A DNA stretch of 53,860 nt from Acidobacteriota bacterium (GTDB taxonomy: Bacteria; Acidobacteriota; Vicinamibacteria; Vicinamibacterales; JACPPN01), in NCBI GenBank assembly GCA_016190995.1, contig JACPPN010000241.1, positions 1 through 53,860 on the forward strand, written 5' to 3'. The notes under the pieces are model-generated. The model had not been told where the DNA came from and ran no database searches. It saw only the letters and a list, made by a program, of their open reading frames with translations. This document shows, piece by piece, positions 141-10,988 of the stretch; the stretch's first letter is position 1; every line of letters starts with the position of its first letter. Position numbers and translations under genes: made by a program.

Positions 141-3100
141 TCAAATGCGGCCCACCTCAAGCGTGCGGCTGGGCATCCGTGATGAACCGCGCTTCAGGAG
201 ATTGCGACCCAGCGCGACTGCCAGCCACGCCGCCATGACGAGCGGCACCGCGCCCAGCACGAGCGCCATCCTTCGATCGATCACGCCGAGATAGTGAAGG
301 TAGAGCCACCAGAAATCGAGGCTGAACGAGAACTGTTGCGAAAAATCACGCTCTGCTTCGGCGGCGGTTCTCTCCAACGGCGGGGGAGCCTCGAGGCCGG
401 CGAGGTACCGAACGTTCCGCGGCACGGCGCGGCTGGCGGCGCACGCGTTCAGCCACAGGCCCGAGGCCGACCAGGTCGAGCTGCTCGCGGCGAAGGCGGC
501 CGGTCCGATCTGGCGCGCGTACTCCACCCGCACCTTCGAGAAATCCACGATGACGGCCGGAATCTGTACCGCGATGCTGATGACGGCGGCGGCCGTCACC
601 AGGCGTTTCCTGAACGGACGCGCGTCACGCGTCAACCAGCTGGCGAGCGGCAGGCAGACGTAAGGCAGCAGCGGCACGAGATAGCGCGGCCCGTACGAGC
701 GACCGCCGGCCCATTCCGAGAGACTCGCGTAGAGAAGCAGACACGCAACCGTCGTGGCCGCGAACAGCGCCGCCGTCGCCCGATCGCGCTTGAACATGTC
801 GATGAGCGCGACCACGCCGATGATGGCAATCGGCGTGTACACGAAGAGCGACGCATGCGGAGAGAGCAGGAGACCGGAAAGCCCAGCGAGCACCGATCCA
901 CCGAGACGTGAGCTGTCGTCGCGCAGGTAACCGGTATCGAACGGGTGGCCGAACCGCGCATGGTTGTAGGCGAGCGCGATCGCTCCTGCGATCACGACCC
1001 CGGCCGACACGTTGGCCACTCGCGTGATCCGATCGCGTACCGACGCCCGCGCCTGCCAGAAGACCCAGGCGGCGATCGGGACGGTTGCGACGAGCAGTTC
1101 GTGTCGTGTCAGGAGCGCCGCCCCGAGACACCAGCTCGCCCGGCGCAGCTTGCGCAGCGATCCCGCCTGGGCGCCGCGCCACGCGCTGTACACGCCCGCC
1201 AGCAGCCAGAACGTCGCGAGCGGTGCGCTGAAGCCGAATTTCGAGTACGGCCACAGCAACGTCGCGAACGCCGCGATGAGCGCGGTGAGGGCGGCAGCCC
1301 GGGCATCCAACGTCAGGTGTGCGGCGAACAGGAATATCAACCAGACGCATCCCGCTGCCGCCACCGCCGATCCAAGCGCGACGATCGCGCGGGGGAGCGT
1401 ATCGGGCTTTCCGATCCGGACGCCGAGCAGGCGCTCGACGCTCACGCCGGCCAGATAGAAGGGCACGTTGTACAGCGACTGACCGATGCCAAACGGCGAG
1501 TAGTACCGTCCATCCTTGCCTCGCGCCGCGTCCATGCCGGCAATGTTGCCGGCGAGCGCGATCGAGCCGTGCTCGACGAGGCTTTCGGTCAGCTCGTAGC
1601 TCACAACAGCATCGGTGGATGCGAGGCTTCCGCCAGCGGTCGCCAAGTAGGTCAGGAGCGCGATTCCTGATACGGCCAGCGCGGCGCGCTGCCACGACGG
1701 AAGCGCGCGATGCGGCTCCGGCGCGCGCGTCGCGAGGCGTCCTTGCTCGAGCAGCTCCTCGGGCGAGGGCGTGCCGACAATCTCGCCCGCCAGCTCGGTG
1801 GTTTCGACGGGCACCTGTGTTGCGCGCGGTGGCCGCAGCCGCGCGGCGATTTGGCGGATGCGATCGAGCTCCCCTGTCCTGAAAAAGCCGGTCAGGGTCA
1901 GGGTCGCCGGATAGAGGAAGAGGACAACCCCGCCGCGCGCCAGAACGCCGACGATGGGAGCGACCGAGGAGGGAACGGCGACCGACGCGACCGCGTAACT
2001 CGCGAGCCCCGCGACGATCAACCGCGCAATCCGTGCGCGCTCGTAGCGGATCCGATAGAACTTCTGCGAGAACCGGAACGCCGTCGCGGCGAGCACGCCG
2101 TACGCCAGCACGTTCGCCCACGCCGCGCCCAGGACGCCGTACCGCGGAATGAGGATCAGATTGGCGCCGACGCTGGTGACGGCGGCGAACAGGGTGGCCA
2201 CCGGGTAGTACTCGGTGTGCTTCGTGATGTTCAGGCCGATCGACGTCAGCAGGTACACGCCCTGCAGCAGCACGCCGAGCGCGATCCAGGGAATGACCTC
2301 CGCCGCTCGGAAAAACGCCGGCGTCGTCATCAGGCGCACGATGTCGGTGGCGACGGCCGAAAGCCCCGTCGCGAGGAGGATGAGAGCCGCAAGCCCGTAC
2401 GTCGTGACGGCACCGAAGGTCCGCGCGGCGTCCTTCTCCCGCATGGTCGCGAAGTAGAAGGGCGCCCATGCGTACTCGAACGCGCTCAGGAACAACTTGA
2501 GCGCCAGCCCGAAGCTCGCTCCGATCGAATAGAGACCCACTTCACGAAGCGAGACGAACAGGCTCAGGAGATATCGATCGGCCACTGCCGTGACTTGCTG
2601 CGCCACACCATGCGGCACCCGGGGCAGGCCGAAGCGCAGCGCCTCGCGAAGCATCCCAGGGGAGAACATCGGCCGCAGGAGCGGCACGAACCATCGCGCA
2701 AGCACGAACGTGAACATCACGCTGACAATGATGTCCGCCAGCACGATGCCGACGATCCCCAGCCGCGCGAACGCCACGAGAATCACGCGGGCGATCAGGG
2801 TGGCCGCCGATCGACTGAACGTCAGCGATACGAAGAGCCGGGGCTGATCCGTGATGCGCAGAACGTGGAACGGGATGAAGTAGAACCCGATGACGAAGGT
2901 GTTGACGAGCGTCAGGCGCAGAACGCCCGTGTAGCCGGGCACGCCGAAGAGTCGATCAGCGATGAGTGGAGCGGCGGCGAGCGCCATGGCGAGGCACACC
3001 CCGTTGAGCGCGAAGAGGAACACGCAGAGCGTGCTCGCAAGGCGCTGCTTGGCCCGGCGATCGGGACAGTCGTAGTACAGCCGCATGAACGACGCATCGA

Positions 3101-3287
3101 CGCCCCACCGGAAGATGATCTTCGCGACCACCTCGACCGTGAGGAGGAGGCTGATGACGCCGTAGTCGGTCGCGGAGAGAAAGCGGACGTACAACGGCAG
3201 GAGCAGGAAGCTCGCAATCGAGGTAATGACGTCACCCAGGCCGTAGATGGCGAGGTTGACGAAGAGCCCTTTGATCTTCTGAAACAC
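141..3287 (-). CDS. Fusion protein: N-terminal MOP/Wzx-type polysaccharide flippase (about aa 1-480) plus C-terminal polytopic GT-C (PMT/ArnT-like) glycosyltransferase-like domain (about aa 530-1048)
   Basis: Uninterrupted 1048-codon ORF with a GTG start at 3287, 1 nt after the TGA of the upstream methyltransferase. The N-terminus 'FVNLAIYGLGDVITSIASFLLLPLYVRFLSATDYGVISLL' plus many TM segments is typical of Wzx/RfbX flippases. After a Pro/Glu-rich linker (nt ~1697-1847), 'STDAVVSYELTESLVEHGS...GKDGRYYSPFGIGQSLYNVPFY' followed by many TM helices matches COG1807/PMT_2-type lipid-carrier-dependent glycosyltransferases. Assignment is by motif recognition only. Confidence 0.7.
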   Translation of the reverse strand: MFQKIKGLFVNLAIYGLGDVITSIASFLLLPLYVRFLSATDYGVISLLLTVEVVAKIIFRWGVDASFMRLYYDCPDRRAKQRLASTLCVFLFALNGVCLAMALAAAPLIADRLFGVPGYTGVLRLTLVNTFVIGFYFIPFHVLRITDQPRLFVSLTFSRSAATLIARVILVAFARLGIVGIVLADIIVSVMFTFVLARWFVPLLRPMFSPGMLREALRFGLPRVPHGVAQQVTAVADRYLLSLFVSLREVGLYSIGASFGLALKLFLSAFEYAWAPFYFATMREKDAARTFGAVTTYGLAALILLATGLSAVATDIVRLMTTPAFFRAAEVIPWIALGVLLQGVYLLTSIGLNITKHTEYYPVATLFAAVTSVGANLILIPRYGVLGAAWANVLAYGVLAATAFRFSQKFYRIRYERARIARLIVAGLASYAVASVAVPSSVAPIVGVLARGGVVLFLYPATLTLTGFFRTGELDRIRQIAARLRPPRATQVPVETTELAGEIVGTPSPEELLEQGRLATRAPEPHRALPSWQRAALAVSGIALLTYLATAGGSLASTDAVVSYELTESLVEHGSIALAGNIAGMDAARGKDGRYYSPFGIGQSLYNVPFYLAGVSVERLLGVRIGKPDTLPRAIVALGSAVAAAGCVWLIFLFAAHLTLDARAAALTALIAAFATLLWPYSKFGFSAPLATFWLLAGVYSAWRGAQAGSLRKLRRASWCLGAALLTRHELLVATVPIAAWVFWQARASVRDRITRVANVSAGVVIAGAIALAYNHARFGHPFDTGYLRDDSSRLGGSVLAGLSGLLLSPHASLFVYTPIAIIGVVALIDMFKRDRATAALFAATTVACLLLYASLSEWAGGRSYGPRYLVPLLPYVCLPLASWLTRDARPFRKRLVTAAAVISIAVQIPAVIVDFSKVRVEYARQIGPAAFAASSSTWSASGLWLNACAASRAVPRNVRYLAGLEAPPPLERTAAEAERDFSQQFSFSLDFWWLYLHYLGVIDRRMALVLGAVPLVMAAWLAVALGRNLLKRGSSRMPSRTLEVGRI

Positions 3288-3288
3288 G

Positions 3289-4008
3289 TCAGGGCTGCTC
3301 GGGTTTCCGGAAGCGGAGCAGATTCAGGAAGCACCAGCCGGGGACGGGTACGAGGCGCGTCAGCCAGCCGTGCAACGGCAGGAGCGTGGCGGGATGCCGG
3401 CGAATCCACTTCGTGAGAACCGGTACCGTCGGGAAGATCCCCCGCCGTTCGACGAGCTCGAACCCTGCGCTCTCGCAGAGCCGGATGAATTCCTCAGCGG
3501 GCCGATCGCCCGGGTGCTTCAGCTCGCTCGCCGTTCGAATGAGGCGTCCGCGCAGCAGGAAATGCATCCGCGACTGCAGGTGCGCCAGGTTCGGGATGGA
3601 GATGAGCAGCTCGCCGCCAGGCCGAAGCACGCGGGACAGCTCCCCGACCGCGATTCGTTGATCCGCGTACCCAAGATGTTCGAGCACGTCCAGACAGAGG
3701 ACACGGTCGAAACCGGCGTCGGGATAGGGCAGCGCGGCCAGAGACGCGTGCTTGACGCGGCCCGACGAGTAGTTGGGATCGATGCCTTCGATGGCGAGCT
3801 TCCGAGCGTACTCCTCGACGAGGATGCCTTCGCCGCAGCCGGCGTCGAGGACCCGTGTGTCCCGGGGCAGGGCGTCGAGGTACTGTCGGACAAGGCGAAG
3901 CTTCGCGAGGTAGGTCGGGTAAAACTCCCAGGAGGGCTCGAGCCGGCGGTGATAATCGCCGCGGGTGGCATACTCGCCGAGACGCAGGTTCGGCAAGGGC
4001 TCGGCCAT
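3289..4008 (-). CDS. Class I SAM-dependent methyltransferase
   Basis: 239 aa. Motif I 'VLDAGCGEGILVEEY' and the downstream 'FDRVLCLDVLEHL...VLRPGGELLISIPN' are typical of the Methyltransf_11/23 fold. Confidence 0.8.
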   Translation of the reverse strand: MAEPLPNLRLGEYATRGDYHRRLEPSWEFYPTYLAKLRLVRQYLDALPRDTRVLDAGCGEGILVEEYARKLAIEGIDPNYSSGRVKHASLAALPYPDAGFDRVLCLDVLEHLGYADQRIAVGELSRVLRPGGELLISIPNLAHLQSRMHFLLRGRLIRTASELKHPGDRPAEEFIRLCESAGFELVERRGIFPTVPVLTKWIRRHPATLLPLHGWLTRLVPVPGWCFLNLLRFRKPEQP

Positions 4009-4128
4009 GAGGGAATCGTGGATGTACGGAAGCGATCTCGTCAGACGAACAAGTCCTGACGCGTTTGTCCCACAGGACGAATTGTAGCGGAAGGACGGCC
4101 AGGTCGGGTCGGCCGCTCGGTTATCGCG

Positions 4129-5214
4129 TCAACGGGCGACGGCGCGCGCCCGAAGAGCGATCGCGCCCGCACCTCGCACGCGCACCGCAGGACTGTCCGC
4201 ACGCAGCATCTGGCGCAAGGTGGAGACCGGACCACGTGCCGCCGTCGTCAGAATGCGAGCAGCCTCCTTCTGGACCACCGGATTCGGATCCTGCACCGCT
4301 TCGCCCAGGACGGCCAGCGCATCGGGATCTTCGGGGAGCAGGAGCTCGGCGGCGTAGAGATAGGTCAGGCCGTCGCGATCGTGGAGCAGCGGCAGGAGCG
4401 CGGGCACCCATGACGGGTCGGCCGCTGCCGCGAGACCCTTCGCCGCCACGAGGCGAAGGTCGGGCGCCTCGCTTTGAAGCGCCTCCGACAGCACGGCATC
4501 GCCGCCCGCGTCTCCCAGGCGCTTCAGGGACGCTGCCGCGCTCACACGAACCAGAACCGAAGGATCGTCCAGGGCGGGACGCAGTGTGTCGACGGCCGTT
4601 GCATCGCCCAGCGTGCCAAGCGCCGCGGCGGCGGTGGCGCGCGGAAGAATCTCCGGATCCGCGAGCAATCTCGCGAGCGTTGGGAGACTTCCCCCATCGC
4701 CGACCTCCCCCAGCGCCTGGATTGCAGCGACGCGGATGTTGGGTGGGCCGGCCTCCGCCAACCCATTCAGACGCGACACGGCGGTTCGATCACCGCTGCG
4801 CGCCGCCGCCTGCAGAGCGGGGACATCGCCGGACGCCGCCGTCTGTCCGGTGAGCGACTGCCTGGCCTGCCGATCGCCGGCACGAGCCAGCGACTCGATG
4901 GCCTCGACGCGCACATCCGGGGCGTCCGAGCGCGAGAGCTCGAGAAGTTCCGCACGCGCGATCGTCGCGAGCAGCGGCAGGTCCTCGTTGCCTGTTTGCG
5001 CGATGAACTGCTCGTAGGCCGACAGCGCCTGCCGCGTGTTCTTCCCGGCGAGCGCCGACTCGATTCGCTGAGCGGCCGCGCGCCGACCCGGCGCCTGTCC
5101 TTCCGCCGCGATTCCCGGCGCAGGAAGTCCTGCCGTGAATGCGAGCGCGCACACCAGGGGTGACACGATCACGGTGAAGCTCTGATTTAAACCTCTCATC
5201 GTCATCGATCTCAA
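4129..5214 (-). CDS. Secreted HEAT-repeat (PBS-lyase HEAT-like) protein
   Basis: 361 aa. N-terminal signal-like 'FTVIVSPLVCALAFTAGLPAPGIAAEG'. Repeated units include 'PDVRVEAIESLARAGD', 'NIRVAAIQALGEVGD', 'PRATAAAALGTLGD', 'VLVRVSAAASLKRLGD', 'PDLRLVAAKGLAAAAD' and 'NPVVQKEAARIL'. Confidence 0.75.
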   Translation of the reverse strand: MRSMTMRGLNQSFTVIVSPLVCALAFTAGLPAPGIAAEGQAPGRRAAAQRIESALAGKNTRQALSAYEQFIAQTGNEDLPLLATIARAELLELSRSDAPDVRVEAIESLARAGDRQARQSLTGQTAASGDVPALQAAARSGDRTAVSRLNGLAEAGPPNIRVAAIQALGEVGDGGSLPTLARLLADPEILPRATAAAALGTLGDATAVDTLRPALDDPSVLVRVSAAASLKRLGDAGGDAVLSEALQSEAPDLRLVAAKGLAAAADPSWVPALLPLLHDRDGLTYLYAAELLLPEDPDALAVLGEAVQDPNPVVQKEAARILTTAARGPVSTLRQMLRADSPAVRVRGAGAIALRARAVAR

Positions 5215-5340
5215 GCCTTGACCGCGGAGGGCGCCGAGAGCGCACAGGAATGACCTTTCCTAATCGCCGCGTGGCTCCCCGTTCTCCGACCGGTGAAAGC
5301 TCTTGACGCGGGATCCAGGAGGATCAATGTAGGACAGTCG

Positions 5341-6660
5341 CTACTTGTACCTGAAGCCGTTTGCCAGCGTGCCGCTCTGGCTGTCCGGGTTCGTCACGAC
5401 GACATCCACCAGTCCCGCGGCATGCGGAGGGGAAATCGCCAGTATCGTGGTCTTGCTGATGACCTGGACGTTGGTCGCGGGTACGCCACCGAGCGTGACC
5501 GTCGCGCCCACGACGAAATCCGTGCCCATCAGACGGAGGGGCATTCCTCCGCCAACAGGGCCTTCCAGGGGAAGAACGCGCGTGACGGTGGGCGCGGGCA
5601 CCTGCGCCTGGTACGTATAGCCGTTCAGCAGGGCTCCCGACTGCAGGTCCGGGTTGGTCACCAGGACGTTGAACGTTCCTGCCGAGCGCGGTCCGGTGAG
5701 CGCCGTGATCGTGGTTGAATTCAACACCTGCACGTTGGTGGCCGCCGCGCCGCCAATCGACACGATGGCGCCGTTGGCGAAATAGAGGCCGGTAATCGTG
5801 ATGGGCGTGCCGCCCGCCGTGCTGCCCTGGTTCGGATTGACGCTCTGGACGATGGGCGCCGGGGCGGGCACACCCGCGACGTAGGTGTAGCCGTGGTAGA
5901 TCATCCCCGACTGTCCGTCAGGATTGGTGACGATGACGTTGACAATGTCGGGGGCGCGAGGCGCCGTGAACGCCGTAATCGTATTCGAGTCGACGACCAC
6001 GACGTTGGTGGCCGCCACCTTGCCGATCAACACCGTGGCTCCCGCAACGAAGTATGCCCCGTTGATCGTGACGAACGTGCCGCCCGCCGTGCTGCCCTGG
6101 TTCGGCGTGATTGTCTGCGGAGCTGGCGCCGACGCCTGGCCGGGCGGAACGTAGGTGTACCCGTGGATCAGGATGCCGGACTGGCCGTCGGGATTCGTCA
6201 CGAGGACGTTCACGAAATCCGCGGCCCGCGGCCCGGTCACCGCCGTGATGGTCGTGGAATCGACGACCACGACGTTCGAAGCCGAGACCTTCCCGATCTT
6301 CACGGTCGCGCCGTTGCCGAACCCGGTGCCGCGAATCGTCACCGGGGTCCCGCCGGCCGTGCTCCCCTGGTTCGGCGAAACGCTCTGAACCGTCGGCGCC
6401 GGTGCCGCGACGTACGTGAAGAGCGCCGTTGCGGTCTGCCCGTCGAGGTTGGTGACGACGAGATTGACGGCGCCTGGGGCATGCGGCGGCGTGACACCCG
6501 TGATAGTGGTGCTTTGAACGACGAGATTCGTTGGCGCGGACCCGCCGATCGTCACCGTGGTTCCCTCGCCGAAATTGAGGCCGGTGATCGTGAACGGCGT
6601 ACCGCCCAGGCTCGTGCCCTGGTTCGGGCTGAGATTCTGAATGATGGGAGGCGGCGCGAA
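5341..6660 (-). repeat. Five tandem coding repeats (about 252-270 bp each) encoding the IPT/TIG domains
   Basis: A 29-nt block 'gtgccgcccgccgtgctgccctggttcgg' occurs at 5807 and again, identically, at 6077. A near-copy 'gtcccgccggccgtgctcccctggttcgg' is at 6347 (270-bp period) and a more diverged copy is near 6599. Confidence 0.8.
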
Positions 6661-8244
6661 GTCGTCGTTGACAATGGTGCCAACCCCTTGGGAGTCCTGA
6701 ATGGGCGCGTTGGTCGCGTTGCTCAGGTTCACGACAAACGTCTCGTTCGGCTCGATGGCCGTGTCACCGTTGACGGTAATCGACACCGGCTGCGTCGTCG
6801 TGCCTGGATTGAACGTCAGCGTGCCCGATTTCGACACGTAGTCGCTGCCGGCGCTCGCCGTGCCGTTCGCGGTCGCGTAGTCGACCGTAATCGTCTGCGA
6901 GCTCGAGGCGGTCAGGCTGACGTTGAATGTCGCCGTGACCGTCCCGCCGTTCCCCTCGGTTACCGATACGTCGTTGATGCCCAGCGATGGCGGTCCGCTC
7001 GAGCTCGAGGTCTGCAGGAACTGGGCGACCGGCTGCGCGTAACTGCGGGACGTCACCAGCAGCCATTGCTTGACGTCCTCGCTGGGGGCCACGCGCGGGT
7101 TGAACGTGCCGGCTCCGCCCGCTGCGGTCACGAAGAAGTCGGGTGACGGGACTCCCGTTGCGCTGATTTCCGCACCCTTGTCTTCGGGACTGTTGCTCTG
7201 AAAGACGGCCAAGTACGTGCCGGAGATTGGATTGCGGTCGACGTCGAGCGCGCCGTACGACGAATAGCAGCAGGCAATCGCGATCTTGTTGCCCGCTGTC
7301 GTCCCGTTCGCGTTGACGAAGTTGCCGTAGATCGTTCCGTTCCCGACAAAATTGAACCAGACGACGAAGTATCGCTGGCTCGAAGGATCGTAGGTGGTCT
7401 GCGGAGCCGACACGAACGCGGCGGTGTCGAGGATGGTCGGTGAGCCCAGGACTGCACCCGTTCCCGACTGCACGCGCGTGCCGTAGATGCGATCGACGCC
7501 GCCGCCGTTAAAGTGATAGGTGATGAGGAACTCGTTGGCGCTGGCGTTGTATCCAATCGACGGTTGATCCTCGAAATCCGGATTCTGGGTAATCACGATC
7601 TCCGAGCCAAGCAACTGTCCCGCATTGCCGACGCGCCTCATCCTGATGTCGTTGGCCGCCGGCGCCTCAACCTGGTACGCGACACCGAATTCATCGGCGC
7701 TCGTCGAGTACGCGATCGCGGCCGCGTTGCCCGCGCGCGCGGTTTGTCCTGGAGACGAGATTCTGAAGTCGTTCGTGAGGAACGTCGGCACGCCACCCTG
7801 GAACGCGAGAATGCGCCCCCAGATTTCCGAGACTGCGGGGTTGACGCGACCATCCAACCACGTCACCAGGAAGGCGCCCGTGTCGGGGCTGTAGGCGACC
7901 CGCGCCGTCTGTGTGTACGCGTTCGTCTGATGAATCTTGAAGACCGCGCTGGCGAACGTGCGGTCCGGATTCACGAACCGCCCGAGCGTCGGGTGGTTTC
8001 CCCAGACCGCGAGATACACATGATTGACGGGATCGTAAGCCACGTCCGGATCGCGCACGAGCGGTCCCAATGGAACGATCCCGAACGTCGGACCGAGCAT
8101 CGATACCTGCGCATCCGCCATCGACGGCGCAACGAGCATGATCGTCGCGACGACACACCGGGCAGCGAGATGAAAGGGGCGGGTCAATGAGCGCACGGGA
8201 CCTCCCGTTGGCAGGTGAGTGCAGACGTGGAACCTATCGGACAT
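5341..8244 (-). CDS. Secreted multidomain surface protein: signal peptide, about seven ~45-aa repeats (beta-propeller-like), a Calx-beta domain and five tandem IPT/TIG domains
   Basis: The ORF runs 5341-8367. The likely start is the ATG at 8244 ('MSDRF...'), followed by the hydrophobic segment 'AARCVVATIMLVAPSMADA'. 'VSVTEGNGGTVTATFNVSLTASSSQTITVDYATANGTASAGSDYVSKSGTLTFNPG...ETFVVNLSN' is a textbook Calx-beta. Five C-terminal ~85-90 aa units of the type 'SV.PNQGSTAGGTP.TI.G..F..GA.V.IG...A.NV.VV.S.TI.A.T.PR....VNV.VTNPDGQSG....YTY' match IPT/TIG. Confidence 0.8.
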   Translation of the reverse strand: MSDRFHVCTHLPTGGPVRSLTRPFHLAARCVVATIMLVAPSMADAQVSMLGPTFGIVPLGPLVRDPDVAYDPVNHVYLAVWGNHPTLGRFVNPDRTFASAVFKIHQTNAYTQTARVAYSPDTGAFLVTWLDGRVNPAVSEIWGRILAFQGGVPTFLTNDFRISSPGQTARAGNAAAIAYSTSADEFGVAYQVEAPAANDIRMRRVGNAGQLLGSEIVITQNPDFEDQPSIGYNASANEFLITYHFNGGGVDRIYGTRVQSGTGAVLGSPTILDTAAFVSAPQTTYDPSSQRYFVVWFNFVGNGTIYGNFVNANGTTAGNKIAIACCYSSYGALDVDRNPISGTYLAVFQSNSPEDKGAEISATGVPSPDFFVTAAGGAGTFNPRVAPSEDVKQWLLVTSRSYAQPVAQFLQTSSSSGPPSLGINDVSVTEGNGGTVTATFNVSLTASSSQTITVDYATANGTASAGSDYVSKSGTLTFNPGTTTQPVSITVNGDTAIEPNETFVVNLSNATNAPIQDSQGVGTIVNDDFAPPPIIQNLSPNQGTSLGGTPFTITGLNFGEGTTVTIGGSAPTNLVVQSTTITGVTPPHAPGAVNLVVTNLDGQTATALFTYVAAPAPTVQSVSPNQGSTAGGTPVTIRGTGFGNGATVKIGKVSASNVVVVDSTTITAVTGPRAADFVNVLVTNPDGQSGILIHGYTYVPPGQASAPAPQTITPNQGSTAGGTFVTINGAYFVAGATVLIGKVAATNVVVVDSNTITAFTAPRAPDIVNVIVTNPDGQSGMIYHGYTYVAGVPAPAPIVQSVNPNQGSTAGGTPITITGLYFANGAIVSIGGAAATNVQVLNSTTITALTGPRSAGTFNVLVTNPDLQSGALLNGYTYQAQVPAPTVTRVLPLEGPVGGGMPLRLMGTDFVVGATVTLGGVPATNVQVISKTTILAISPPHAAGLVDVVVTNPDSQSGTLANGFRYK

Positions 8245-8430
8245 CCACCGCCATCCGAATAGGGATGTGACAAGAGTTCGAATGTATTGTTGGGCTTCGG
8301 GTCTGCTGCTGGGACGGCAAGGCCGAAGAACGCGACACACTGTAAGGGATTGGTGCGGATCGGTCAAGCGGGGTGAGCGCCGGAACGTAGGCGGGCGTCG
8401 CCCACGACCGACCGCCGGTCCGATTACGGA

Positions 8431-10038
8431 TCAGCTCGGTACCCGGCGGTACAGCACGAAATCCTCGATGTCGGTCTCGTGGCTGTATCGGCCAAGCAGA
8501 TCTTGAATGGGCGGCGACGCAAAATGCTCGTCGGCATTCCGATCGTTGCGCTCCAGGATGAAGTATGCGGGCGGAGTCTGACGAAGGCTCGCGGCAAGCG
8601 TGGCGAGCGTGAAGTCGGGATGAACAAACATGCCGGAGACGGCCGGCGCTATCCAGACGAAGCGGTTTGCCGGCAATCTCAGACTGGCGAAGTACACCCC
8701 GGGCTGCATGCCGAAGATGAACACGCGGTCGGCGGGTGAGGTGTGCGCGCGCAGATACGCGGCGAGCTCCGCGTTCGCGCGTGCCGAATACCCCCGTCCG
8801 TTGGCGTATCCGCCGAATCGTTCCAGGTACGCCTCCTGGCGATCGCCGTCACGCGTCAACTGCTGCAGATTGGCGGCCGTCACGAGGTACACCCGCCGTG
8901 TGTAGCCGTAGTGGGCGATCACCGCAGCCGCGAGAATGGCGGCACTTGCCTGCACCGCAACCCGCCGCCGCGACGCGCTCGCGAACAACCCTGCAGCCAA
9001 CAACGCCAGCGGCGGCAGCGAAGGAATGAAGTAGGTCGTGAACAGGCGTGCGCCGCTTGCGAACGCGCCGGCGAGGGCGCCTGCCAGCCAGAGGGCGCCC
9101 AGGGCGGAGCCGACGTCCACCTCGCGACGCCGAATCCAATCCCATGCGGCAACACAAATGGCCACCCCGCCCAGCAGCCACAGCGCGTCTGTCTTGACTC
9201 GCAGCCAGCCCTCCTTTAGGAAAGCGATGGCGAAGGCATCCCACCGCAGCTCGAAGGCGAGGTAGCTCGCGTTGTATCCGAAGATCGCGACCCTTGCATC
9301 CTCACCGGCGTTCTGGCTCCAGAGCCACGCCCCCACGATAGCAGGCACCGCGAGCAGTCCGAGCATCGAGAGCCCCGCGGTCTTGAACAGGCGGTGGTCT
9401 GGGTTCACGAGTTTCGTGAAGAGCAAGAGCGCGGGCCAATAGAAAACGGCGACGGGCTTGAAGACGAGGGCGGCGCCCAGAAGGGCTCCCCAGGCCCACG
9501 ACGCCCAACCCGGACGCCCTTGGGCATCGGCGGCCCGGAACGCGGCGGCGGCCATCAGGGTGCACATGAATACTTCGGGCACAGCTCGCTCGAGGAACCC
9601 GCCGTACTTGTACTGACCTGCCGGTATGGTCAGGACGACGTACAGGGCGGCTGCACGGAGCCCGCGCGCGGAGCCGCCACACCGCCGCCCGACCAGAAAG
9701 AGAAACAACCCCGTCAGGGCTGTTGTGAAGATATCGAGCGCCGCAACGGCCTTCGTCGTCGGACCCCAGACGAGGAATGCGGCCAGGTAGGTCAGGTGGA
9801 TGCCGGGCGGCTTTTGATCCCAGAGATCGCCATAGGGACGCAAGCCTTCGTGCAGTCCCCAGCCGATTGTCGCGAAAATGCCCTGATCGATTCCCAGTGG
9901 TTCGGCGACGATCGGTACACGGACGAGGAGTCCTCCCATGACGGCGGCCACCCATAGCGCGGCGATCAGCCGAGAGGGTGTTTGTTCACGACGGCGGACG
10001 GTACGGAGCAGGCCGTGCGGCCGAGGCCACGCCGTCAC
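8431..10038 (-). CDS. Polytopic GT-C-like membrane glycosyltransferase (PMT/ArnT-like family)
   Basis: The ORF extends to 10278, but its first 80 codons are Arg/Pro-rich and overlap the upstream gene. A GTG at 10038 forms a GTGA overlap with the stop of the radical SAM gene. 'LIAALWVAAVMGGLLVRVPIVAEPLGIDQGIFATIGWGLHEGLRPYGDLWDQKPPGIHLTYLAAF' is followed by about 10 TM segments and a soluble C-terminal domain. Confidence 0.65.
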   Translation of the reverse strand: MTAWPRPHGLLRTVRRREQTPSRLIAALWVAAVMGGLLVRVPIVAEPLGIDQGIFATIGWGLHEGLRPYGDLWDQKPPGIHLTYLAAFLVWGPTTKAVAALDIFTTALTGLFLFLVGRRCGGSARGLRAAALYVVLTIPAGQYKYGGFLERAVPEVFMCTLMAAAAFRAADAQGRPGWASWAWGALLGAALVFKPVAVFYWPALLLFTKLVNPDHRLFKTAGLSMLGLLAVPAIVGAWLWSQNAGEDARVAIFGYNASYLAFELRWDAFAIAFLKEGWLRVKTDALWLLGGVAICVAAWDWIRRREVDVGSALGALWLAGALAGAFASGARLFTTYFIPSLPPLALLAAGLFASASRRRVAVQASAAILAAAVIAHYGYTRRVYLVTAANLQQLTRDGDRQEAYLERFGGYANGRGYSARANAELAAYLRAHTSPADRVFIFGMQPGVYFASLRLPANRFVWIAPAVSGMFVHPDFTLATLAASLRQTPPAYFILERNDRNADEHFASPPIQDLLGRYSHETDIEDFVLYRRVPS

Positions 10039-10988
10039 GCGAGTTTCGTCACCCACAGCGGCGAATCTTTCTTGGGCAGGTCGCACGACCGACAGATGTC
10101 CGGGCCGCCGCTTTCGAGATGCTGGCGGCGGACGCGACGGTAGGGCTCGGAGTTCCAGATCTGCCGGATGCCCGACGTGCGGAGATCTCCCAGGATCTCC
10201 TTGCCGTCGAAATCCGCGCAGCACAGCGACACGCGGCCATCCCACAGCACCGTGAAGGTGAGCCAGGGACGATAGCACGGGTACGCGACGTTCGATTCCC
10301 GGTTGAGTGTACCCGCCCAGTTGTGCAGGTCGGTGACGTGAATCTTGTCTGCGATCGATCGCCAGTGCTCGATGAACGCGCGCTCCTCCTCCGAGTTGTT
10401 CTGCCGCACGAACGACAGAATCAGCTTGGGGCGCCGCCGCCCCAGCTCGGATCGGATTCGGACGAGCTGCTCGATGTTGGCGATGACCTTGTCGTACTTG
10501 AGGCCGACACGCGTCCGCTCGAAGACCTCTTTGCCCGAGGCGTCAACGCTGACGTTGATGGCGTCGAGCCCCGCCTCGATCATCCCGCGGGCGGTCTCGT
10601 CGGAGATCAGGGAGCCGTTGCTGATCATGCCCACTTCCGCAATTCCTGTCTGCTTCGCGTACCGCACTTTGTCGACGAGCGTGCGATCGATGAACGGCTC
10701 CCCGTAGTTGTGCACGCGGACGTGGCGGATGCCGAGATCCGCGCACTCGTCGACAATCTTGCGGTAGAGCAGCATGTCCATCACACCCTGCCGGCGAAGC
10801 ATGTCGTCGCGCGGGCAGAAGGTGCACTTGGCGTTGCAGATGTTCGTGCTCTCGATCTGGACGATTTCGGGAAGGTGAGGCGCCGCGTCGCGGCCGGCGA
10901 AGAGAAGGGCGCGGCGCAGCGGCTTCGCGTTCCGGAGCAGCAGCGCTTCGATTGAGCGCCGCGCGCGCCGCCCGAGGCCGGCCATCAC
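10035..10988 (-). CDS. Radical SAM enzyme with C-terminal SPASM/twitch-like Cys cluster
   Basis: The CX3CX2C motif 'NICNAKCTFCPRD' is present. The C-terminal cysteines 'PCYRPW...VSLCCADFDG...ICRSCDL' are also present. The start (GTG 10988 or ATG 10985) overlaps the stop of the upstream SDR gene. Confidence 0.8.
   Translation of the reverse strand: MMAGLGRRARRSIEALLLRNAKPLRRALLFAGRDAAPHLPEIVQIESTNICNAKCTFCPRDDMLRRQGVMDMLLYRKIVDECADLGIRHVRVHNYGEPFIDRTLVDKVRYAKQTGIAEVGMISNGSLISDETARGMIEAGLDAINVSVDASGKEVFERTRVGLKYDKVIANIEQLVRIRSELGRRRPKLILSFVRQNNSEEERAFIEHWRSIADKIHVTDLHNWAGTLNRESNVAYPCYRPWLTFTVLWDGRVSLCCADFDGKEILGDLRTSGIRQIWNSEPYRRVRRQHLESGGPDICRSCDLPKKDSPLWVTKLA

Follow-up and report, generated by a model that had tools for sequence, protein, structure and literature searches.

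The window, a stretch of 53,860 nucleotides from an uncultured groundwater acidobacterium of the order Vicinamibacterales, carries a gene for a large exported protein in the midst of glycosyltransferase and flippase genes, which raises the question of what such a protein does among the enzymes of a glycan island. A preliminary description had taken it for a possible acceptor of Pmt-type O-mannosylation, modified by the neighbouring GT-C enzymes in the Pro/Ala/Ser/Thr linkers between its IPT domains as in Actinobacteria, or alternatively for a glycan-binding scaffold. The features on which the question turns are the following.

141..3287 (-): Wzx flippase fused to a GT-C domain, downstream
3289..4008 (-): class I methyltransferase, in the conserved block HEAT/propeller, methyltransferase, Wzx
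4129..5205 (-): HEAT-repeat protein (HEAT_2, PBS-HEAT/alphaRep type), exported by way of a signal peptide, downstream of the propeller gene
5341..8196 (-): exported propeller/Calx-beta/five-IPT coding sequence, 951 aa plus stop (public gene call)
5344..5592 (-): IPT/TIG domain 5 (Pfam), with Arg instead of Thr at the TMEM260-type acceptor position
5608..5856 (-): IPT/TIG domain 4 (Pfam)
5878..6126 (-): IPT/TIG domain 3 (Pfam)
6148..6396 (-): IPT/TIG domain 2 (Pfam)
6409..6648 (-): IPT/TIG domain 1 (Pfam)
6712..6966 (-): Calx-beta domain, one copy (PF03160, 66.4 bits against a gathering cut-off of 27)
6982..7017 (-): Ser/Pro hinge QTSSSSGPPSLG between propeller and Calx-beta; homologs have Pro/Thr/Ser/Gly-rich hinges in the same place
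7003..8106 (-): seven-bladed beta-propeller, 368 aa (uncurated family; AF2 fold)
8107..8196 (-): Sec-type signal peptide, 30 aa, predicted cleavage between ADA and QV, supported by alignment with homologous signal peptides
8339..8367 (-): promoter-like site TTGACC-17-TACAGT, located within the 237-nt gap that precedes the propeller gene
8431..10038 (-): upstream GT-C glycosyltransferase, nearest to ArnT in fold

Gene, export signal and domain architecture

The mechanical open reading frame at 5341-8367 (-), which had been described as the gene, exists and is of the coding type (GC3 = 0.81); the gene is real, and its translation most likely starts at the GTG at 8196 and not at 8367. Specifically, the public gene call of 951 aa places the start at this GTG, a GGAGG lies 4 nt 5' of it, and the opening 57 codons of the mechanical frame are probably untranslated. 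The promoter-like site overlaps the TTG that begins the mechanical frame, although one such site found against 0.5 expected is weak evidence. Contigs from three groundwater metagenome runs of one study span the gene and differ by SNPs only, with no indels. The neighbour annotation agrees with the described location among GT-C and flippase genes and next to a secreted HEAT-repeat protein, and the island also holds Dpm1/ArnC-like GT2 genes and an AlgX-like SGNH gene. In relatives, the Wzx and GT-C halves of 141..3287 are two separate adjacent genes. The long open reading frame of the upstream GT-C, running to 10278, overlaps the radical-SAM gene.

The signal-like N-terminus of the preliminary description is a Sec signal peptide, VRSLTRPFHLAARCVVATIMLVAPSMADA, followed by QV; in alignments with homologs, both it and the start of the mature protein match their counterparts. 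The protein was also searched for an outer-membrane translocation signal, a lipobox and a C-terminal sorting signal, and only the Sec signal was visible; surface exposure in a diderm bacterium is therefore left without explanation. The N-terminal region that follows had been called a repeat region; it is a seven-bladed beta-propeller, modelled by AF2 with a pLDDT of 92 and a pTM of 0.93, in which 27 strands form seven groups, blade 7 is completed by the N-terminal strand, and the motif xVAY[DSN]..(F/Y)LVxW...GR.V occurs once per blade.

The Calx-beta domain and the five tandem IPT domains stood up to the profile searches: the former, placed earlier at nt ~6672-6981, is matched by Pfam at nt 6712-6966, and the latter are found in five stretches by IPT/TIG PF01833 (214 bits against a gathering cut-off of 20.9, E = 2e-64). 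The linker strings quoted for the IPT domains are likewise present, but they are mostly the first strand of the following IPT domain. The true inter-IPT linkers (AAPA, PPGQASA, AGVPAPA and AQVPA) have 4-7 residues each and, over 23 residues in total, contain one Ser and no Thr, while the hinge behind the propeller, with QTSSSSGPPS, is the sole Ser-rich linker of the protein.

A conserved propeller and HEAT pair with a variable tail

Compared with Pfam, NCBIfam and PDB sequences, the propeller gave no significant match and lies outside all curated propeller families, yet its own family is large, with 2750 cluster representatives at E<=1e-3, of which 166 reach E<=1e-30, and in it the propeller sits nearly always directly behind the signal peptide. 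A structural search with the model returned 731 propeller matches at E<=1e-3, all of them generic propellers at 7-13% identity, including the non-enzymes YncE and WD40 proteins as well as sialidases (Neu2, TM about 0.6), the oligogalacturonate lyase 3pe7 and GH43/GH32 enzymes. A comparison with GH33, GH43 and PL22 gave no profile match and no unique invariant catalytic set, and known lectin propellers were unrelated in sequence. The conserved polar and aromatic residues repeat blade by blade as [W/Y]-[E/Q/D]-x-x-P ahead of the inner strand, an aromatic-acidic motif recurs before the inner strand in blades 2-6, and the family-conserved D285 and H303 are replaced in this propeller by Gly and Gln, respectively. 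Judged from the residues, this per-blade pattern would be of the type seen in multivalent binding propellers and not that of a single active site.

The propeller gene does not travel alone. The HEAT gene directly adjoins it in 16/16 Vicinamibacterales loci, with signal peptides on both proteins in all 16, and the pairing was also recovered in metagenome loci reached from either of the two genes and at the one other homolog with an IPT tail, the loci beyond the 16 including L029, L030, L045 and P0133. Every pair locus examined is a glycan locus, containing either Wzx, GT-C, methyltransferase and radical-SAM genes or Wzy_C and a WecA-like transferase. At the genome level, the propeller is present in 29 of the 31 genomes with the radical-SAM marker of the island and absent at E<=1e-10 from genomes of the same order without it, except G236 (4e-17); within one genus, G210 has both marker and propeller and G046 has neither. 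The propeller and the exported HEAT gene are a conserved two-gene module of Vicinamibacterales glycan loci, which supports a functional link to the glycan island and bears out the earlier view of the gene as a functional part of envelope-glycan loci. Across Vicinamibacterales the pair stays together with genes for a sugar polymer of the cell envelope, and the protein therefore most likely binds such a polymer or is attached to it. In most loci anchored on the radical-SAM gene, the pair is not beside that gene (the methyltransferase directly follows it in 56/80), and in many genomes the pair sits in another glycan locus than the radical-SAM island; therefore, the assignment of the pair to one particular glycan is tentative.

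The tail behaves differently. The preliminary description had asked whether orthologous loci always keep an IPT-repeat protein: the propeller and its HEAT neighbour are kept, but IPT domains occur in only 1 of 158 other propeller-family representatives and Calx-beta in none (0/158). Other members carry InlB B-repeats (up to 13), BACON, FG-GAP, DUF5719/ASRAH, PA14 or Y_Y_Y modules, tail composition differs in each genus examined, and among the homologs there are tails of 11-13 InlB B-repeats and proteins of up to 1970 aa. The Calx/IPT tail is thus the lineage-specific, variable part of the protein; the tails are exchangeable modules of beta-sandwich or adhesion type, several of which are predicted carbohydrate binders (PMC2739507). 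The hinge region shows a shared bias, as the 30 residues after the propeller have a median Ser/Thr/Pro/Ala/Gly content of 0.73 against a background of 0.48 (95 homologs); some homolog hinges include PT repeats such as TPTPTPAPSP, and many consist wholly of poly-Pro and lack hydroxyl residues.

Competing explanations for the role of the protein

The proposal of Pmt-type O-mannosylation finds no support in this comparison. The GT-C proteins of the island give weak Pfam PMT/PMT_2 matches (25-31 bits) and no match to PDB sequences, and by fold the adjacent GT-C comes closest to ArnT 5f15 (TM 0.58), with yeast Pmt1/2 (6p25) ranking 38th at E = 0.25. With a variable tail, Ser/Thr-poor linkers, an ArnT-like GT-C and a host that is a Vicinamibacterales acidobacterium and not an actinobacterium, the argument from Pmt and the linkers fails, and the reading of the protein as a Pmt (GT39) substrate is not supported, as no Pmt ortholog is shown and Ser/Thr-rich Pro/Ala linkers are absent. 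The glycan-binding scaffold, named earlier as the alternative, suits the comparative data better.

The explanation favoured here, tentatively and with somewhat less than even confidence, is that the propeller is an anchor that binds the glycan of the island, bearing a variable projecting stalk and having the HEAT protein as its partner. The surrounding genes would assemble an envelope glycan on the outer face of the inner membrane by means of the Wzx flippase, polyprenyl-phosphate-sugar-dependent GT-Cs, the methyltransferase, and radical-SAM and sugar-nucleotide enzymes. Sec would export a modular envelope protein whose conserved functional part is the N-terminal propeller, and the propeller and the exported HEAT protein, the latter as partner or chaperone, may dock non-covalently onto the envelope glycan. 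From this anchor, a short Ser/Pro hinge followed by a rigid stalk of Calx-beta and five IPT beta-sandwiches would project as a module for display or adhesion that is particular to the lineage and exchangeable. The protein would end up as a glycan-anchored scaffold or surface component, and be neither an enzyme nor primarily a Pmt substrate.

The adjacency to periplasmic glycan transferases suits an acceptor equally well as an anchor. A dedicated glycosylation acceptor, O-glycosylated after export by the adjacent periplasm-facing transferase (GT-C here, Wzy_C family elsewhere), most plausibly at the Ser/Thr/Pro hinge that follows the propeller or in the IPT strands and with the HEAT protein as substrate adaptor, is a doubtful but serious candidate. 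The gene always lies beside periplasm-facing transferases, which come from two unrelated superfamilies, the Dpm1/ArnC-like GT2 genes could supply a lipid-linked donor, and the enrichment behind the propeller points to the hinge. IPT1-4 moreover agree with the degenerate TMEM260 sequon (Px6Px3Px2GGx3T) in all but the third Pro, where they have Thr or Ser, and four of the five IPT domains bear Thr at the acceptor position. This sequon is, however, no more than the generic IPT consensus, and the TMEM260/DUF2723 family is matched by 0/4 GT-C proteins of the island at E<=1; the unconserved tail, the near lack of hydroxyl residues in the inter-IPT linkers, the poly-Pro hinges of many homologs and the likeness of the adjacent GT-C to ArnT and not Pmt also argue against an acceptor, and the Wzy_C genes beside the pair in relatives are without a PglL-specific domain at E<=0.01. 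A bolder form of covalent linkage would be an undescribed protein-to-glycan attachment system of Vicinamibacterales, with the HEAT-propeller pair as its signature, propeller and hinge as the common "handle" of diversified surface proteins, an adjoining periplasm-facing transferase (ArnT-like GT-C or Wzy_C-family) that covalently links or decorates the handle with glycan, and the HEAT protein as substrate adaptor; it is given a slim chance and, by analogy, would be the bacterial counterpart of the helical-repeat substrate-binding regions in the animal TMTC/TMEM260 O-mannosyltransferases.

Exopolysaccharide systems also contain proteins that trim or remodel the polymer, such as PslG, PelA, AlgL and BcsZ, and a catalytic domain followed by a variable tail of binding modules is a common enzyme architecture. 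The fold matches with sialidases and an oligogalacturonate lyase leave room for such a role beside the anchor, and those with GH43/GH32 enzymes, the faint GH43-type Pfam matches in some homologs and the propeller-then-variable-tail layout are consistent with a hydrolase, lyase or modifier acting on the polymer of the island, its tail being a set of binding or spacer domains. Such an enzyme is nevertheless unlikely, given that no enzyme family or PDB entry is matched significantly by sequence or profile, that the structural matches are generic and count YncE and WD40 non-enzymes among them, that the conserved residues are chiefly per-blade structural motifs, and that D285 and H303, the few unique conserved polar residues, are replaced in this protein. 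By analogy with the TPR and beta-rich accessory proteins of the alginate, Pel, cellulose and PNAG systems, the HEAT and propeller proteins might instead form a periplasmic assembly scaffold that guides lipid-linked or nascent glycan from Wzx and the GT-Cs toward the outer membrane, with the stalk as spacer. Sec signals only on both proteins, the tight placement of both genes among inner-membrane components (Wzx, GT-C, Wzy_C) and a HEAT protein of the helical-repeat kind whose scaffolds are typical of such systems speak for it; a hypervariable tail is unexpected in a core machine part, the pair sits in another locus than the island in several families, and tails of 11-13 InlB B-repeats would seem over-long for the periplasm if extended, so that this scaffold is also improbable. 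Lastly, an unrelated adhesin or passenger gene that merely happens to lie in the glycan island would account for the way in which the pair changes place with respect to the radical-SAM block between genomes and for the generic adhesion modules of the tail, but it is very hard to reconcile with the adjacent HEAT gene in 16/16 loci, the glycan context of every locus examined and the co-occurrence of propeller and island marker, which within one genus are jointly present or jointly absent, and is highly improbable.

Known relatives in design and biological meaning

The anchor reading has its closest precedents among systems that share single traits with the locus. ASRAH/DUF5719 surface proteins (De Souza, Iyer & Aravind 2009, PMC2739507) are likewise exported, beta-rich and encoded beside glycan-synthesis genes, the proposal for them is that they bind the polysaccharide of the linked transferase and so build a structure on the cell surface, and DUF5719 occurs in 7/54 propeller-family tails. 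In contrast to the ASRAH beta-sandwich, the conserved module here is a seven-bladed propeller with a HEAT protein, the tail is Calx-beta and IPT, and the lineage is Vicinamibacterales instead of Actinobacteria. PorZ, which has two propellers and belongs to the type IX secretion system, binds anionic LPS of its own cell so that cargo can be attached, and is similar in being an exported beta-propeller protein with the role in own-envelope glycan binding that is proposed here. Unlike with PorZ, a T9SS, a C-terminal sorting domain and a sortase-like partner were not seen, the two proteins are unrelated in sequence, a HEAT-repeat protein is the partner here, and the genes lie inside a glycan synthesis locus.

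AlgK/AlgX, PelB, BcsC and PgaA are helical-repeat or beta-rich periplasmic accessory proteins of exopolysaccharide systems that act on nascent polymer outside the cytoplasm. The locus resembles them in encoding an exported alpha-solenoid with polysaccharide synthesis genes, and an AlgX-like SGNH gene; however, the AlgK/PelB/BcsC/PgaA systems are synthase-dependent, and their TPR repeats are joined to an outer-membrane porin or dock onto it, whereas the locus here is of the Wzx/GT-C (or Wzy_C) type, its repeats are PBS-HEAT, and the protein paired with them is a propeller that bears a variable stalk. Actinobacterial Pmt/Ppm1 loci similarly combine a GT-C fold transferase, Dpm1-like GT2 genes and an exported protein, and differ in the host, the GT-C type, the linkers and the tail as described above. 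In animals, TMEM260 is a GT-C with a helical-repeat luminal region that modifies Thr in the first two IPT strands (PMC10214176; bioRxiv 10.64898/2026.09.21.753134). Four of the five IPT domains here carry a Thr at the corresponding position, in a sequon-like context that equals the generic IPT consensus; unlike the animal targets, they stand in an island with no TMEM260/DUF2723 GT-C detected, and IPT domains are absent from nearly all orthologs.

The analysis defines a propeller family that is uncurated and numbers its members in the thousands, together with an exported HEAT and propeller module whose stalks are exchangeable and which goes along with the envelope-glycan genes in Vicinamibacterales, and it shifts attention from the unconserved IPT linkers to the propeller, the hinge and the HEAT partner. 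Soil and groundwater are rich in Vicinamibacterales (Acidobacteriota subdivision 6), which are seldom cultured, and to our knowledge almost nothing is known of their cell envelope, so the module offers a way into asking how they display or attach proteins on surface polymers. If the protein is indeed a glycan anchor, or part of a protein-glycan attachment system, it would represent a new kind of envelope organisation in diderm bacteria.

Gene limits and domain architecture

The open reading frame originally assigned to the propeller gene, 5341-8367 (-), is open throughout, and its GC3 of 0.81 is the bias expected of genuine coding sequence in a contig of 66% G+C, but translation most likely begins further in: the public gene call gives a protein of 951 aa starting at GTG 8196, and a GGAGG motif ends 4 nt 5' of this codon. 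Since the TTG that opens the longer frame lies within a promoter-like site (TTGACC-17-TACAGT, 8367-8339 (-)), the first 57 codons are probably an untranslated leader. This site sits in the gap of about 237 nt 5' of the gene (8197-8430 (-)), and the TTG belongs to its -35 hexamer. The N-terminus from GTG 8196 is a typical Sec signal peptide, VRSLTRPFHLAARCVVATIMLVAPSMADA, with predicted cleavage before QV; the region around this site and the opening strand of the mature protein (LGPTF) line up with their equivalents in homologs. The gene is single-copy in its own genome and is covered, with SNPs as the only differences, by contigs of three groundwater metagenome runs of one study, which probably include the source sample, so that this coverage is not independent support. 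No RNA runs holding the sequence were found, all matches being DNA runs of one groundwater study, and an Rfam scan of 3900-8700 returned no RNA element. A conserved 5' leader between the HEAT and propeller genes was considered and dropped, as the distances between the two genes, measured from the true starts, are an unremarkable 80-160 nt.

The N-terminal 368 residues (nt 7003-8106) carry about seven copies of a ~50-aa motif, xVAY[DSN]..[FY]LVxW...GR.V, and have no significant Pfam, NCBIfam or PDB sequence match; with the propeller as query, PDB sequence and profile searches gave no match, and Pfam at E<=10 gave DUF7015 alone, below threshold. The AlphaFold2 model, built on a 15-sequence alignment, is all-beta (pLDDT 92, pTM 0.93), with 27 strands arranged in seven four-stranded blades, the seventh closed by the N-terminal strand. 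Foldseek retrieved hundreds of generic propellers at 7-13% identity, including the prolyl oligopeptidase propeller, YncE, the sialidase Neu2, CylK, oligogalacturonate lyase and WD40 proteins, with no specific relative prominent. Whole-protein homolog searches were swamped by unrelated multi-Calx-beta proteins, and propeller-only queries were therefore used; an exhaustive HMMER search of this kind retrieved 2750 cluster representatives at E<=1e-3 (166 at E<=1e-30), and among 106 near-full-length matches nearly all have the domain immediately behind a signal peptide, beginning at residue 20-40. The conserved residues form aromatic/acidic motifs in each blade, in the loops before the inner strands, and the window copy lacks D285 and H303, two of the few unique conserved polar residues of the family. 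The sole two cysteines of the mature protein, C279-C280 (IACCYSS; 7267-7272 (-)), are adjacent residues of the loop that precedes blade 6, and the family does not conserve them.

A Ser-rich hinge, QTSSSSGPPS, connects the N-terminal region to the tail, and homologs commonly carry a Pro/Thr/Ser/Gly-rich hinge behind the propeller (median Ser+Thr+Pro+Ala+Gly fraction 0.73 vs a background of 0.48). Pfam confirms the Calx-beta domain and five IPT/TIG domains reported in the preliminary description (one Calx-beta at nt 6712-6966, 66 bits; IPT/TIG at E = 2e-64); NCBIfam names the same tail units 'choice-of-anchor Z' repeats, and pairwise identity among the five IPT units is 43-72%.

The propeller is the conserved part of the protein, and the tail is not conserved. 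In the regions behind the propeller of 54 homologs, Pfam recognises FG-GAP (9), DUF5719 (7), fn3 (5), Y_Y_Y (5), BACON (4) and InlB B-repeats (4), while TIG occurs in only two and Calx-beta only in the window's own protein. Ten orthologs of the same order end in DUF5719, in 13 and 11 InlB B-repeats, in Y_Y_Y, in BACON (alone or combined with FG-GAP) or in sequence without a recognisable domain. The IPT-unit profile matches one of 158 other family representatives (P0133, likewise with five IPT domains), and the window's Calx-beta matches none of them. In genome G219, three propeller copies stand in a row in two genes, between the radical-SAM gene and the HEAT gene:

Propeller genes of genome G219
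L017:8861-14773, gene one, 1970 aa: two propellers and 13 InlB B-repeats
L017:14934-19499, gene two, 1521 aa: 11 repeats

At L029:6110-11604, the second propeller of a propeller protein of 785 aa breaks off halfway, and its remainder opens the product of the following gene call (1065 aa); a frameshift or an assembly error has probably divided what is a single tandem-propeller gene.

The HEAT partner and the glycan loci

The propeller gene is flanked upstream by a GT-C gene and downstream by the gene of a HEAT_2 protein of the PBS-HEAT/alphaRep type (4129-5205 (-)), which has its own signal peptide. The island further holds a methyltransferase, a Wzx-GT-C fusion, a radical SAM/SPASM enzyme, an ArnA-like SDR, an AlgX-like SGNH protein, a TIGR04326-type surface-carbohydrate protein, a GT9, another GT-C, a DegT, and several Dpm1/ArnC-like GT2 and GT4 genes. 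A complete dcw cell-division cluster abuts it in the right half of the contig (31249-48355 (+); mraZ, rsmH, ftsL, ftsI, murE, murF, mraY, murD, ftsW onward). The Wzx and GT-C parts fused at 141-3287 are separate neighbouring genes in loci L045, L049, P0279 and P0133. The upstream GT-C frame, 615 aa long, shares 240 nt with the 3' end of the radical-SAM gene (10038-10278 (-)); as its homologs align only from about residue 86, its real start is placed by alignment near GTG 10038, and tblastn matches of the N-terminal extension in other loci were discarded as artefacts of the overlapping frame.

The preliminary description raised the question of whether orthologous loci keep an IPT-repeat protein beside GT-C genes: what they keep is the propeller and its HEAT neighbour, not the IPT tail. 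Specifically, when 16 propeller-anchored loci from other genomes of the same order were compared with all window genes, a HEAT homolog directly adjoined the propeller gene in 16 of 16, with signal peptides on both proteins throughout. The HEAT gene usually lies upstream, and it lies downstream in the window, in its closest relative (L016, genome G055) and in G219. Metagenome loci found through the propeller again contained the pair, as did two of three examined loci found through HEAT, and the recurring block runs radical SAM - propeller - HEAT - (an exported protein of ~300 aa) - methyltransferase - Wzx - GT-C. The only other IPT-tailed homolog stands in the order HEAT - PMT_2 - propeller-5xTIG - Wzx - PMT_2. 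Other families of the order carry the pair in another glycan locus, with a Wzy_C-family gene immediately upstream in two cases (L021 and L022) and a WecA-like phosphoglycosyl transferase gene flanking it in four (L019, L022, L024, L026). These Wzy_C proteins (O-antigen ligase/polymerase family) are unusually long (L021:5691-8249, 852 aa; L022:11975-13933, 652 aa). As an exception, locus L046 (1672-5985) has a HEAT homolog, then a 947-aa FG-GAP protein, which is another propeller type, and then the same methyltransferase, with no member of the present propeller family; propellers of different kinds may therefore serve as partners of HEAT. Phylum-level matches (L031-L037, L043, L044) were rejected as orthologs, as they share the blade repeat only, without HEAT or glycan synteny.

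Relatives also conserve a small exported protein, encoded after the radical-SAM gene or after HEAT (L049:11025-11714, L057:10960-11778, L045:9243-10151, L028:4795-5517). In it, a globular domain of ~110 aa (LRL..GRVTLVA....QIL.EWARIG...IV...L.GPP.TLEL.DVPE.RALE..LR) precedes a long tail rich in Pro and Gln; the protein has no significant Pfam match and no homolog within the window.

With the radical-SAM protein as the marker for locus searches, 31 genomes besides the window's own were positive among 300 sampled genomes of the class (70-80% identity), and the propeller was present in 29 of them, 22 by single-sequence and 7 by profile search. Marker-negative genomes of the same order gave no propeller match at E<=1e-10, except G236 (4e-17, profile search); within genus g14, G210 has both marker and propeller, and G046 has neither. 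Among 80 marker-anchored loci, the radical-SAM gene is directly followed by the methyltransferase and Wzx in 56, and the 10-kb flank contains the propeller in 20 and HEAT in 14, often inverted and at the far end; thus, the window's order (radical SAM - GT-C - propeller - HEAT - methyltransferase - Wzx) is found in a minority of loci. Within glycan loci, the pair behaves as a module that can change position.

Glycosylation and the island's GT-C proteins

The protein had been proposed as an acceptor of the island's GT-C enzymes, by analogy with actinobacterial Pmt, a model that presupposes an enzyme of the Pmt type, linkers rich in Ser/Thr and, by the same analogy, an actinobacterial host. The four island GT-C proteins match Pfam PMT/PMT_2 weakly (25-31 bits) or not at all, and no PDB sequence relatives of them were found. 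The AF2 model of the adjacent GT-C (pLDDT 85) has ArnT as its nearest fold (5f15/5ezm, TM 0.58), followed by STT3, AglB and PglB, with yeast Pmt1-Pmt2 ranking 38th (E = 0.25). The linker strings quoted in support of the proposal are present, but they are mostly the first beta-strand of the following IPT domain (P-x-[IV]-x-S-[IV]-x-P...); the true linkers, AAPA, PPGQASA, AGVPAPA and AQVPA, hold one Ser and no Thr in sum, and the tail that carries them is the unconserved part. The named relatives found through the radical-SAM protein are Vicinamibacterales, Vicinamibacteria or unclassified Acidobacteriota MAGs, with one exception. This record, L107 (CAYUPN010000020.1), carries a Vicinamibacterales-type island with a radical-SAM gene 77% identical, is labelled 'uncultured Bifidobacteriaceae bacterium' and is probably a mis-binned or mislabelled MAG. 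Animal TMEM260 O-mannosylates IPT domains, and IPT1-4 of the window fit its published degenerate sequon except for the third Pro; this fit is the generic IPT consensus, and a TMEM260/DUF2723-type GT-C is absent among the four island GT-C proteins. Altogether, the linker-mannosylation argument fails, and a Pmt-type substrate role through the IPT linkers is rejected. A role as glycosylation acceptor in general is unlikely; the hinge or some other site of the protein might carry a glycan.

Function of the propeller-HEAT pair

Both proteins carry export signals, the N-terminal region has a propeller fold, and the strictly conserved pair is constantly located in glycan loci beside periplasm-facing transferases and Wzx; that the gene is an unrelated passenger there is very hard to credit. 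Exchangeable modules of beta-sandwich or adhesion type make up the tail, and several of these, including ASRAH/DUF5719 (PMC2739507), are predicted to bind sugars. Since the aromatic/acidic motifs recur in each blade, as in a multivalent binder rather than around a single active site, the propeller is read as a putative glycan binder and would serve as a binding module for an envelope glycan. The same pattern speaks against a glycan-processing enzyme, and the loss of D285 and H303 in the window copy argues against an essential catalytic site; this alternative is quite improbable. A purely periplasmic assembly scaffold would agree with the export of both proteins, but the tails, with as many as 13 repeats, look too long for such a role, and we consider it rather unlikely as well. 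A defence role against phages was rejected, because PADLOC reported nothing for the propeller protein and generic HEAT matches only for its partner.

Our leading, still tentative reading, held at somewhat below even probability, makes the protein a scaffold or surface component anchored to the glycan and partnered by HEAT. An N-terminal anchor that stays conserved while the distal part diversifies would follow the logic of glycan-anchored surface proteins; the main weakness of this reading is that the protein shows no visible signal for outer-membrane translocation or anchoring.

No relevant paper on a HEAT/propeller glycan module in Acidobacteria emerged from the literature searches. The tail domains are ordinary, and glycan loci are already known to encode exported proteins with accessory or anchor roles. 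The new elements are an uncurated propeller family that counts thousands of members, the pairing of the propeller with an exported HEAT protein, which we call obligatory, and the residence of this pair in Vicinamibacterales glycan loci.
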